Counted from the stretch's first letter, positions 25,873 through 28,809 are shown. The stretch is 64,000 bases of DNA from Candidatus Bathyarchaeia archaeon (GCA_038870975.1 JAVZJD010000001.1:64001-128000), one strand, 5' to 3'. Notes: generated from the letters alone by a model not told the origin. Translations and numbers: made by a program.

Positions 25873-26940
25873 TTAGAAGCCTAGTGAATGGGATAAATCT
25901 AAAGAGTAAAGCGTCTGCTCATAGTATTTGGGACCATATGTTAAAGTTATCTGGTAGAACAACTCTTTTAGAGACTCTACTCTCTCAAGCCATCCTTCAA
26001 CGTAAACCCTCTCGCCTTTAAAAGCCTGAAGTCTATATTCCTCCACATACGATACTATACGTTTTATGCCGTCTACTCTAAAGCCTTCCACTACGTCTTC
26101 AACTTCAACATCGTATACAGACGGCATGAAAGCCGCCTCATCGTCTCCGAGTATGGTTGCATAGGCTTTTAACCAGCCGAGTCTAACGATACTTCTTAGA
26201 GAACTATACTCGTTCGCGATTTCACCATAATCTTTAACAGGCTCAAACTCGACTTTGACAGGTCTAGCGTTTAACGGCTTATAAACGCCGTATATCAACT
26301 TCCTCTTTTGATGCGCTATGTATAGTTTGTAAGGGTAGTTTTTAAACTTCCATTTAAAACTTAAATCTTCAGATGGATGTTCAAACTCGTTGAATATAAA
26401 ACCCCCTTTGTAGAGGGCTGCCAGACAGTCTCTAAGCTCTTTCAAATTCTTCAGCCCATATATGACGAAATCTAAATCTGAAAAATTTGGATGGTAGAAT
26501 CCGAGGAGTAGGGAGCCGAAGACTCCAAAGTCCTCTAAATTCAACTTCGAAGAACACAGAATCATGTTGAGGACTTTCTCCAATGCTGTTAAAAGCTCAT
26601 CTTTCGAAGAATCTATCAGCCTAATTAAGGCATCCTTTGGAAGCCTAACCTCACCTATTCGGTTTTTAGGGACCCCTGGAAGGTATGCATTTAAAGGCCT
26701 ATAGTAGACTCTATACTCTGGAAAACGCTTATTTATGAGTTTAAACGGTTCATCTCCGTAGAGTTTGTAGTGGGATATTTTGCTACGTCCTCTTGGAGCC
26801 CTGGGATTATTGGAACTGTAGAGATTTGAAGGCACATATTCAAGGTCGCACAAGTATCCGTCAGGTGGATGAGAATACCCCAACACTCTAAATATTAAGC
26901 CGTTTGAACTTATGATATAATCTCTATCTCTTAGGCTCAT
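25873..26940 (-). CDS. COG1665-like predicted nucleotidyltransferase, paralog B
   Basis: GVFGSLLLG...SDLDFVIYG Pol-beta motif and N-terminal IFRVLGYSHP. ATG at 26940 abuts the stop of paralog A (the ORF track extends to 27012). Confidence 0.8.
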   Translation of the reverse strand: MSLRDRDYIISSNGLIFRVLGYSHPPDGYLCDLEYVPSNLYSSNNPRAPRGRSKISHYKLYGDEPFKLINKRFPEYRVYYRPLNAYLPGVPKNRIGEVRLPKDALIRLIDSSKDELLTALEKVLNMILCSSKLNLEDFGVFGSLLLGFYHPNFSDLDFVIYGLKNLKELRDCLAALYKGGFIFNEFEHPSEDLSFKWKFKNYPYKLYIAHQKRKLIYGVYKPLNARPVKVEFEPVKDYGEIANEYSSLRSIVRLGWLKAYATILGDDEAAFMPSVYDVEVEDVVEGFRVDGIKRIVSYVEEYRLQAFKGERVYVEGWLERVESLKELFYQITLTYGPKYYEQTLYSLDLSHSLGF

Positions 26941-26941
26941 T

Positions 26942-27964
26942 TTAGTACAACTTCCTAACTTGAATGTACTCGCCCGGTCTACCTGAGCCGACGACAACCC
27001 TATACTTTTCAATGTTGCTTGAAGTAGATATTTCCCTTTCCAATAGACCTCGAACTTCGAGTAAGTCTCCTTCGGATGCTAAACCCCTATACGTACCATC
27101 CATGACGACAATATCCTTCGGCCTCATTTCAGGAGGCAATCTAGACTCTTCATTAACAGCTCGATAATCTGAAACCCTGTAGATTGCTGGTCTGAAGAAG
27201 GATTCCTCAGCAGATTCAACCATGCATCTAAACCTTACAGTCTTTATAGGCATCCTACGGTATGCTCCATAAACGTCTTTTATTTCATCAGACTTTCTAA
27301 CAGCGTTGAAAACGACTTTGAAACCCTTGTAAGAGATTTTATTTTTACGGAGTCTATCGAACTCATTCTCATACATGTATTTCATAACGTCTTTAGATAC
27401 TAATCCACTCACGGTATTCCTCACTTTTCTAAAGTTTAATCCTCCGTAGATCGCTACGTCAACATCGGGTTTTTCAGACAGCATATCTAAACAGAGAGAG
27501 CCATGTATACCAAAATTCTTCAATTCAATGTCGGAATTGGAGGAAATCAATTCAATCCATTCAACGGCCACATCCTCCACTGGAAGACGATTCTTTTTGC
27601 GTATAAGTCTAAATAGAGCATCCCTAGGTTTGAAAACACACTCTATTTTATCTTTAGGAACAGATGTTAAGACTTTAGAGTTGTATGGACATTCGTAGAC
27701 GTAATGTGGGAAGTTTTCACTGAAAACCCTTAAGATCTCTTGAAGATTCTCAGGACTGTAAAGTTTAACTGGTCTCACATACATCTCACTCTCATGCTTC
27801 CAAACCCACGGTAAAAACTCCATCTTAAATAAACTTTTAAAACGCTCCGGCACATACTTTAAATAGGCAATATAGCGATCATCAGGATGCTCATAACCGA
27901 AGACGTAGAAAATAAAGCCATCCTGAGTTTTAATGATATCTCCATCGACGAGTTTTTCAGACAT
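26942..27964 (-). CDS. COG1665-like predicted nucleotidyltransferase, paralog A
   Basis: GIHGSLCLD...DVDVAIYG, N-terminal [10 protein letters not shown]...YLKYVP and an OB-fold-like C-terminus. Confidence 0.8.
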
Positions 27965-28082: not shown

Positions 28083-28349
28083 ATGGTATACGAATCGCAG
28101 GCGTATTTAACATTAATACGTAATGTAGATAGAGGACTTAGAACTAGAACTTTGATAATAAAAGCTCTCAAAAGTGGATGTACGAGTATTGGAGAAGTTT
28201 CAAAAACCACAGGGTTAAAGTACCAGACCATCTTGAAACATATTAAGAAGATGGAGGAAGAAGGTATTGTTGTTAAACGCGGAGAGAAACCTGTAAAATG
28301 GCTTCTGACGGATAGAGGACAGAGAAGTATTTTAATCTACGGAACTTAA
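28083..28349 (+). CDS. Winged-helix (ArsR-like) transcriptional regulator
   Basis: TRTLIIKAL...SIGEVSKTTGLKYQTILKHIKKMEEEGIV helix-turn-helix; divergent from the NTase pair. Confidence 0.85.
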   Translation: MVYESQAYLTLIRNVDRGLRTRTLIIKALKSGCTSIGEVSKTTGLKYQTILKHIKKMEEEGIVVKRGEKPVKWLLTDRGQRSILIYGT

Positions 28350-28356
28350 GGAGAAT

Positions 28357-28634
28357 TTGTTTGTCAGGTAGCGGGGAGAGGCCGCTCCTCCCACCTCCTA
28401 TAACCAACCCGAAGGCTGGTTATAGGCGTCATTTCTGCAGGTTTAAGCTAACCTTTCGGTTAGCCCGTTTCCAAGCCTTTCGACTTGGAAACACCCTGCA
28501 CGACCTATCTACTCAGTCTCACTCATTGGAATCTGTTACGCAACCTTGAGCCGTCCCGAAGGACGGTCAGGGGAGCGTAACAAACTCCGTTGAGCAAGAC
28601 TTTTCGATTTTAGACGACGCTACCTTTTGACCAA
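28357..28634 (-). ncRNA. Unassigned ~270-nt structured RNA with terminal BHB motif (predicted circular RNA)
   Basis: GC-rich island with four hairpins closed by UUCG/GAAA tetraloops on the minus strand; mismatches read as G-U only on the minus strand. Terminal helix GGUAGCG/CGCUACC continues into a BHB. TATA-like box about 25 nt upstream. Confidence 0.85.
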
Positions 28635-28656
28635 GCTTAGGGTCTTCTAATTATTC

Positions 28657-28662
28657 TTTTAA
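28657..28662 (-). promoter_or_regulatory. Putative TATA box (TTAAAA) of the structured RNA
   Basis: About 23-28 nt upstream of the outer BHB helix at 28634, in AT-rich DNA. Confidence 0.5.
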
Positions 28663-28809
28663 GATTAACTGACTATTTTTCTAAATAAATTAGTCTAGTA
28701 AACTGTAACTAGACCTAAAAAAGGTATAATGTATAAATTCATTAAATAAAAATTACTAAATTTAAAAAAGATGGAAAAAAGGTTTGAATTTCCCTTAAAG
28801 CACTGAGGT

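Follow-up and report, generated by a model that had tools for sequence, protein, structure and literature searches.

What kind of RNA does the minus strand encode at positions 28634-28357 of this stretch of archaeal DNA, and why can its two ends pair with each other into the shape of a splicing site? The stretch, hereafter called the window, comprises 64,000 nucleotides from Candidatus Bathyarchaeia archaeon (GCA_038870975.1, JAVZJD010000001.1:64001-128000), and its initial annotation proposed a structured RNA of no assigned family that would be excised at a terminal bulge-helix-bulge (BHB) and joined into a circle. The archaeal splicing endonuclease EndA cuts the BHB after the second bulge nucleotide. 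Its known substrates are few, amounting to transfer RNAs (tRNAs), ribosomal RNAs (rRNAs), one permuted signal recognition particle (SRP) RNA and two messenger RNAs (mRNAs); rRNA and the two mRNAs are documented as targets beyond tRNA (PMC7714728). We regard it as near certain that positions 28634-28357 hold a real and previously undescribed structured non-coding RNA gene, and as probable that the product of this gene is a substrate of EndA and the ligase RtcB from which a circular RNA results.

All elements of the proposed minus-strand structure are present on direct reading of the sequence, including the BHB, the UUCG hairpins, the UGCAGG/CCUGCA junction and two GAAA-capped hairpins (Table 1). 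The gene is a GC-rich island with AT-rich DNA on both sides, and its minimum free energy (MFE) of -146.4 kcal/mol lies far below the -88.2 +/- 6.0 kcal/mol of dinucleotide shuffles (z = -9.75). Folded as the plus strand, the same DNA reaches only -125.2 kcal/mol, 21 kcal/mol weaker than the minus strand, and the UUCG, GAAA and GCAA hairpin caps read as such on the minus strand only. An alignment of homologues, introduced below, holds 122 G-U cells against 19 A-C cells, which identifies the minus strand as the coding strand and, together with the stronger fold, bears out the strand assignment made initially. The sole open reading frame (ORF) within the gene, a TTG-start frame of 62 aa on the opposite strand (28361-28549, plus), lies wholly inside it; there is hardly any doubt that this frame is spurious, and an automatic annotation could be misled by it.

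The RNA is not confined to one genome. One copy is present in each of the 17 genomes of a single class, distributed over four families (f1-f4), with hosts that are hot-spring Bathyarchaeia; matching contigs come from the metagenome-assembled genomes (MAGs) B24, JZ-2 and QZM, and six metagenome contigs give two further variants. In f1, to which the window belongs, the RNA occurs in the window's genome and in all seven others, and in f2 in three of three, as established by BLAST, a pattern search and R1, a covariance model of the 3' domain with 146 positions. R1 also found it in the f3 genome G012, where the RNA is split over two contigs, and a further f3 copy (G009) was located beside the orthologue of the winged helix-turn-helix (wHTH) gene that adjoins the RNA in the window. 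The four f4 genomes all carry it beside that same orthologue, in a form that R1 and BLAST miss. A sample of 133 other genomes of the phylum yielded no copy, and neither did viral contigs, where five pattern matches in IMG/VR all fail the covariance model. A second pattern match in the window's genome (C2:610721) was judged a chance match because it looks coding and unstructured and because a control with the reversed pattern also yields matches.

Covariation was assessed in an alignment (A5) of 14 sequences from f1-f3, in which standard pairs fill 94.4% of helix cells and compensatory double changes occur at 29 pairs; when the partner strands were slid out of register, only 33-46% of cells remained paired and 3-7 pairs showed double changes. 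The homologues thus keep the stems with covariation, as expected under the circular-RNA model of the initial annotation. The closing helix P1 is paired in 95.8% of cells, with double changes in three of its seven pairs. Pairing reaches 98.6% in the five basal pairs of P2, of which three show double changes; the helices of the P3 junction (P3, P3a and P3b) are paired in 94-100% of cells and contribute 11 double-change pairs, and P4 contributes seven. The stem of P5 is 100% paired and almost invariant, so that covariation neither supports nor opposes it.

The two most conserved blocks of the RNA, UCGAAA and GAGUAGAU, face each other at the base of P2; neither UCGAAA nor, within the second block, AGUAGAU varies among the 14 sequences. 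They fit the 5'-AGUA/5'-GAA consensus of the bulged-G (loop-E or sarcin-ricin) module and are a candidate for it, with non-canonical pairs that would have to form between them; the flanking 3-bp AUC/GAU helix is 100% paired, and the helices on both sides of the module are supported. A 6-bp pseudoknot between the segment before the P3 junction and the apical loop of P5 is paired throughout (100%) in 13 sequences. Compensation is scored at two to three of the six pairs, with G-C/A-U and C-G/U-A appearing in both counts and U-A/U-G/C-G in one. Helix X is paired in 82.9% of cells, and the adjacent pair (29/404) is U-A in f2, C-G in f3 and U-G in genus g2; this gives moderate support to helix X as a putative long-range helix that crosses the pseudoknot. 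The pairing GUCGU/AUGAC of the MFE structure was rejected because it breaks in g2; the same nucleotides form the covarying pseudoknot and helix X. A small UCG/CGA hairpin after P1 was discarded, as it is not kept in f2.

Rfam 15 (4227 models) finds only two tRNAs at gathering score in the whole window. At E <= 10, a level at which local half-matches would be listed, the region itself, searched as the linear sequence, yields only two chance-level matches (E = 3.4 and 8.2), and the larger f2 and g2 versions have no Rfam match. Group I and group II introns and C/D and H/ACA small RNAs give no covariance-model match in the region; nor does archaeal SRP RNA (RF01857, with helix 6 and helix 8) or, at E <= 10, archaeal RNase P RNA (RF00373, type T, P4 core). 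Canonical genes for both of the latter exist elsewhere in the genome, that for RNase P RNA at C1:918906-919207 (180 bits) and that for SRP RNA at C1:167069-167388 (173 bits), which answers a check that the initial annotation had called for, and its view that the RNA belongs to no known family holds. Its suggestion that part of the RNA loosely recalls the joiners of the RNase P specificity domain is not supported; the segment in question forms a family-specific long-range helix and pseudoknot instead. An RNase P-like order of helices was rejected, as helix X and the pseudoknot cross in a pattern unlike that of P2 and P4 in RNase P. One might still view the locus as an orphan or mobile BHB intron, or as a diverged or permuted fragment of RNase P RNA, SRP RNA or rRNA, given that BHB-bounded introns of similar size occur in archaeal rRNA and tRNA genes and that a permuted SRP RNA gene is known. 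This is very improbable in light of the single copy per genome, its conserved position by the same gene across the class, the unconserved and non-coding flanks, the lack of copies among the viral contigs searched, and an Rfam search that returned no partial match beyond chance beside canonical RNase P and SRP RNAs. We take the locus most likely to be an RNA gene in its own right, whose family is new to the literature and occurs throughout one class of hot-spring Bathyarchaeia.

What sets this RNA apart is the manner in which it ends. We tabulated the termini of 18 distinct sequences for which both ends are available, 14 from f1, f3 and f4 and four from f2. A BHB is present in 14 of the 14 from f1, f3 and f4: the central helix is always paired at four of four positions, on the 3' side of the central helix each strand has a 3-nt bulge, the inner helix is paired at six or seven of seven positions, and the outer helix comprises between one and seven contiguous base pairs (three in the window). 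The canonical geometry claimed at the outset for the window can therefore be read directly and is kept across three families. The motif is far from frozen in sequence, in that the central helix occurs in five variants (GUCA/UGAC, GUCA/UGAU, GUCA/UGGC, GUCG/UGAC and GUCG/CGAU) and the outer helix in forms that are unrelated to one another (UUG/CAA, GUG/CAC, UCG/CGA, GCCG/CGGU, GCGCCG/CGGCGC and CGCCG/CGGCG). Outer, central and inner helices all covary, while the 3' bulge is AAA or AAG throughout. Sequence conservation begins at GGUCA and ends at UGACAAAC, beyond which the flanks are otherwise unconserved and non-coding. BHB-like matches of similar score turn up in every 930-nt control region that was scanned, and a bare match consequently does not exceed chance; what does exceed it is a motif placed at the termini of a conserved RNA and itself conserved with covariation in three families.

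Table 1. Features of the RNA gene and its surroundings in the window (coordinates from the first nucleotide of the window; RNA sequences 5' to 3').
Feature	Position	Strand	Remarks
TATA-like box CTTAAAAG	28656..28663	-	read directly; the TTAAA core begins 30 nt upstream of GGUCA
BHB outer helix, 5' strand UUG	28632..28634	-	pairs with CAA 28357-28359
BHB central 4-bp helix, 5' strand GUCA	28628..28631	-	pairs with UGAC 28363-28366
5' 3-nt bulge AAA	28625..28627	-	predicted EndA cut 28626/28625
P1 closing helix, 5' strand GGUAGCG	28618..28624	-	pairs with CGCUACC 28367-28373
Helix X (putative), 5' strand CGUC	28613..28616	-	pairs with GACG 28427-28430
Loop-E/bulged-G module (presumed), 5' half AUCGAAA	28602..28608	-	AUC pairs with GAU 28507-28509; GAA faces AGUA
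P2 long interrupted hairpin	28515..28601	-	UUCG loop
Loop-E module (presumed), 3' half GAGUAGAU	28507..28514	-	faces UCGAAA 28607-28602 at base of P2
Pseudoknot, 5' strand AGGUCG	28501..28506	-	pairs with CGGCCU 28379-28384
P3 three-way junction UGCAGG/CCUGCA	28436..28500	-	carries P3a 28493-28466 and P3b 28464-28447, GAAA loops
Helix X (putative), 3' strand GACG	28427..28430	-	within joiner between P3 and P4
P4 13-bp hairpin	28397..28426	-	UUCG loop
P5 hairpin GGGAG/CUCCC	28374..28392	-	7-nt loop forming the pseudoknot
Pseudoknot, 3' strand CGGCCU	28379..28384	-	in P5 apical loop
P1 closing helix, 3' strand CGCUACC	28367..28373	-	partner of 28618-28624
BHB central helix, 3' strand UGAC	28363..28366	-	partner of GUCA
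3' 3-nt bulge AAA	28360..28362	-	predicted EndA cut 28361/28360
BHB outer helix, 3' strand CAA	28357..28359	-	partner of UUG
Pyrimidine/T-rich trailer	28348..28356	-	directly after outer helix
Predicted excised and circularised product, 265 nt	28361..28625	-	from BHB geometry and presence of EndA and RtcB in the genome
88-aa AspA/ArsR-like winged-helix gene	28083..28349	+	convergent; stop codon 8 nt from RNA 3' end

The surroundings of the motif are those of a short transcription unit. The TATA-like box that had been noted upstream of the window's copy is present, and a TTAAA box precedes GGUC(A/G) by 30-36 nt in 18 of 18 homologues. Its distance grows with the length of the outer helix, from 30 nt in the window's genus (g1) through 32-33 nt in f2 and 34 nt in g2 to 36 nt in f3 and f4, and the position of the box would place the start of transcription. 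Downstream, the outer helix is followed by runs of U in the homologues (UUUUUU in g2, UUUUCUUUUUU in f3 and CUUUUU in f4), and the trailer is a likely transcription stop that may act as an archaeal oligo-T terminator. Since the distance of the box tracks the outer helix and a U run follows it, the primary transcript is expected to be little more than the BHB-framed RNA itself. Together with the limits of sequence conservation, this agrees with the early impression that the flanking "exons" are only a few nucleotides long.

The enzymes that such a transcript would require are available to the organism. Its genome encodes two EndA paralogues (tRNA_int_endo, 105 and 83 bits; ORFs of 188 and 191 aa; C1:251571-251813 and C1:270239-270493), which presumably assemble into the heterotetrameric, broad-specificity type of enzyme, and an RtcB (494 bits). 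ARAGORN predicts introns in 13 of 44 predicted tRNAs; among the predictions are long introns (85 nt in a tRNA-Ser, 138 nt in a tRNA-Glu) as well as a single call of a "tRNA-Stop", and some of them may be mispredictions. As a separate observation, the RtcB gene lies in a single open frame of 986 aa (G000:C1:62226-65000, minus strand; positions 1-1000 where it reaches into the window), in which the Pfam RtcB match is split into model residues 1-50 and 49-426 with about 1.4 kb between them, a layout suggestive of an intein within the ligase.

The sequence shows the gene with its strand, fold and pseudoknot, the BHB geometry with its conservation, and the enzymes in the genome. From these elements the following course of events may be proposed, with transcript limits, cleavage, ligation and function all inferred. 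The TATA promoter would drive a transcript of about 285 nt ending at the T-rich tract, the ends of which would pair into the canonical BHB; EndA would then cut both 3-nt bulges at the sites given in Table 1, and RtcB would seal the 265-nt middle piece to give a circle, leaving a leader and a trailer of about 9 nt each as by-products. The predicted back-splice junction reads ...CCUGACAA/AGGUAGCG... (...CGCUACCUGACAA/AGGUAGCGUCG...), with 28361 joined to 28625, and would fall within a 7-nt loop (UGACAA/A) that caps P1 after ligation. The resulting ring would be a compact fold closed by P1, comprising the putative loop-E module from which the long hairpin rises, the three-way junction with its two GNRA hairpins, the long-range helix and the pseudoknot. 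Because the flanking "exons" measure only about 9 nt and are unconserved beyond their pairing, the excised piece would have to be the product. We consider this outcome, a circle made by EndA and RtcB, the probable one.

Several observations weigh against it. A simple scan of the 250-nt flanks of the genome's own 16S rRNA gene found no canonical BHB, and these flanks form a 13-bp processing stem; tRNA introns are consequently the only positive control within the genome. Such 16S flanks are not unusual in Bathyarchaeia (PMC12918454). In addition, the outer helix has only one to three base pairs in genus g1, fewer than would suit a strict hBHBh' substrate, and would rely on a broad-specificity enzyme. 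The four f2 sequences (among them L037:1479-1932) have no BHB: three extra nucleotides in the 3' strand allow GUCA to pair within a continuous terminal stem of 9-10 bp opposite a 3x3 or 3x2 internal loop. The f2 change from GUCA/UGAC to GUUA/UAAC supports this continuous-stem register, and a K-turn at the internal loop was considered and rejected because the sequence departs from the GA/GA consensus. With the BHB present in three of the four families, f2 is best read as having lost or masked it. The RNA evidently works in f2 without a BHB, which leads us to view circularisation as one of two interchangeable modes of protecting the ends, and probably means that the function of the RNA does not depend on its being a circle. 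Finally, the interior of the f4 RNA is not alignable with that of the other families, which argues against a strictly conserved catalytic core.

The f2 stem in particular lends some credit to a simpler view, in which the mature RNA is linear and its terminal stem, with offset 3-nt bulges, binds a protein or protects the ends while remaining uncut by EndA: the same RNA exists in f2 with a plain stem and an internal loop, which shows that a linear form works, and the brevity of the g1 outer helix and the frequency of chance BHB-like matches are in keeping with this view. We nevertheless consider it unlikely, because the exact BHB geometry is retained in 14 of 14 sequences from three families while the central helix passes through five variants and the outer helix is changed completely. 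Such a pattern of variation is expected of a structural signal that is read by EndA, and conservation stops exactly at the motif. Circularisation by EndA and RtcB thus remains the reading that we prefer.

Among systems already described, the closest counterpart of the proposed circle is the SRP RNA of Thermoproteus tenax and T. uzoniensis, in which EndA-dependent circularisation produces a circular SRP RNA that is functional (Plagens et al., 2015; PMC4731332). In both cases a stand-alone gene encodes a structured RNA with an EndA site at the termini. A stable circle of about 300 nt has been demonstrated as the functional product for the Thermoproteus RNA, whereas here it is predicted. The Thermoproteus gene, moreover, is a permuted version of a universal RNA in which circularisation repairs the permutation, while the present RNA is unpermuted and coexists with a normal SRP RNA. 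The processing stems of archaeal pre-16S and pre-23S rRNA likewise place a BHB on a long-range helix between 5' and 3' flanks, with excision by EndA and ligation by RtcB, as predicted for the present RNA. They differ in carrying rRNA as their cargo, on a polycistronic transcript, and in giving a circle that is usually an intermediate; the present gene is a monocistronic unit whose flanks are vestigial and whose cargo is a 265-nt RNA.

The rRNA precedent raises the question of whether the BHB could serve merely to trim the ends, with a circular intermediate re-opened into a linear and possibly permuted mature RNA. Circular pre-16S and pre-23S rRNAs are usually re-linearised (PMC12918454), and the present evidence fits an intermediate and an end product alike; against this, no conserved second processing site was seen in the RNA, ligation would place the junction in a small P1-capping loop and so give a compact closed molecule, and the circular SRP RNA of Thermoproteus is a functional end product. 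Trimming is thus a rather improbable account. The introns of archaeal tRNAs, rRNAs and mRNAs that are bounded by a BHB (e.g., those of cbf5 and of the HVO_1309 5' untranslated region; PMC7714728) and the metazoan tRNA intronic circular RNAs (tricRNAs) also share the circularisation of an excised piece by RtcB. In those cases the exons constitute the product, whereas here it would be the excised piece, with "exons" of about 9 nt.

What the RNA might do can be approached through the parts that vary. The periphery evolves quickly. P2 is longer by 45-110 nt in other genera, and in genus g6 about three copies of a 27-nt hairpin unit replace P3b (L038:1691-1768 in G011; also L037 and L022). In f3, an array of 100%-identical 28-nt units, each a GUAA-capped hairpin, replaces P4 and spans a contig break, with 4.1 copies at the end of one contig and 5.5 at the start of the next (L055:1585-1700 and L056:1-155 in G012; L061 in G009); as the array breaks the assembly, the copy number in f3 is only bounded, at 5.5 or more. 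The f4 RNA, of about 330 nt, contains 126 pairs, 32 of them with double changes among four sequences, and keeps the order of P1, then a long-range CCCC/GGGG helix around two hairpins, followed by a P4-like hairpin and a small version of P5. The invariant blocks of the putative loop-E module, the pseudoknot and the freely expanding peripheral hairpins hint that the RNA may be the core of, or a scaffold for, a ribonucleoprotein (RNP) rather than a base-pairing regulator; circularity could protect its ends at high temperature. In their lineage restriction, covariation-supported folds, pseudoknots and GNRA loops, the large bacterial OLE, GOLLD, ROOL and raiA RNAs are comparable; no sequence or model similarity between them and the present RNA, which is archaeal, was found. 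To our knowledge none of them is framed by a BHB or circular. The lineage variants described here, in which a BHB gives way to a long stem or hairpins to tandem arrays, amount to a natural experiment on the roles of circularity and of the peripheral hairpins.

The neighbouring genes provide a further clue. The wHTH protein matches Pfam HTH_24 and HTH_5, with the plasmid segregation protein AspA as its best solved relative (4rs8, E = 4e-6), and each of the 17 class genomes has one orthologue. Its gene is convergent with the RNA at a distance of about 8-65 nt in f1, in G008 of f2, in f3 and in f4, that is, in five of six genera, and the other neighbours differ between the lineages that keep this adjacency. 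In genus g6 the RNA has moved away from the wHTH gene and is flanked upstream by a GrpB-like gene and downstream by a URO-D-like one. There are 33 orthologue-like matches to the wHTH protein in other classes; none of the 13 such loci examined has a BHB-framed RNA beside the gene, and in those that were read the convergent neighbour either encodes a protein (MazG-like, judging from its translation) or is mere intergenic DNA. The adjacency may accordingly reflect a functional link or merely retained synteny. Two wHTH orthologues (G005:C112:9670-9921 and G015:C7:9747-9998) contain one in-frame stop each, TGA and TAG respectively, which could be a sequencing error, a pseudogene or recoding.

The kinship of the wHTH protein with AspA, the adjacency kept in five of six genera and the f3 tandem array of identical 28-bp units might together prompt the idea that the locus acts as DNA, its repeats serving as centromere-like or operator-like sites for the AspA-like protein. 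This seems to us the most improbable of the alternatives, considering that the alignment tolerates G-U and not A-C pairs, that long-range helices and a pseudoknot covary, that RNA tetraloop caps appear on one strand only, and that the unit is bounded by a promoter and a U run; none of these features would be expected of a DNA binding site. A functional link to other neighbours was also considered and rejected, since fructose-1,6-bisphosphatase (fbp), which lies upstream of the RNA on the same strand, and the nucleotidyltransferase-like paralogues are neighbours common to f1 and f4 only. The latter are two adjacent genes beyond the wHTH gene (25873-27964 of the window, minus strand) that encode proteins of 379 and 340 aa with about 28-30% identity; one has only a weak NTP_transf_2 match, and no NCBIfam family or solved relative turned up for either. 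In f1 both are next to the wHTH gene, as is at least the first of them in f4. Elsewhere in the genome, the 16S rRNA match (G000:C1:504336-505972) spans 1637 nt against a model of 1478 positions, a surplus that may stem from an insertion or intron of some 160 nt.

Whatever its mature form, the RNA joins a very small number of new, intricately folded archaeal RNAs, and its presence in every genome of the class implies a function to be found. A more ambitious interpretation can be offered only tentatively, and we would sooner bet against it: that this is a housekeeping RNA, universal in its class, which matures into a circle with no free ends, works as an RNP subunit or a ribozyme and belongs to a wider class of archaeal circular-RNA genes, whose production would be a third major task of EndA and RtcB beside the maturation of tRNA and rRNA. 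If the excised piece is indeed the product, the machinery of tRNA splicing would serve archaea as a general route to stable circular RNAs, and the system would be a natural counterpart of engineered systems for circular-RNA expression.

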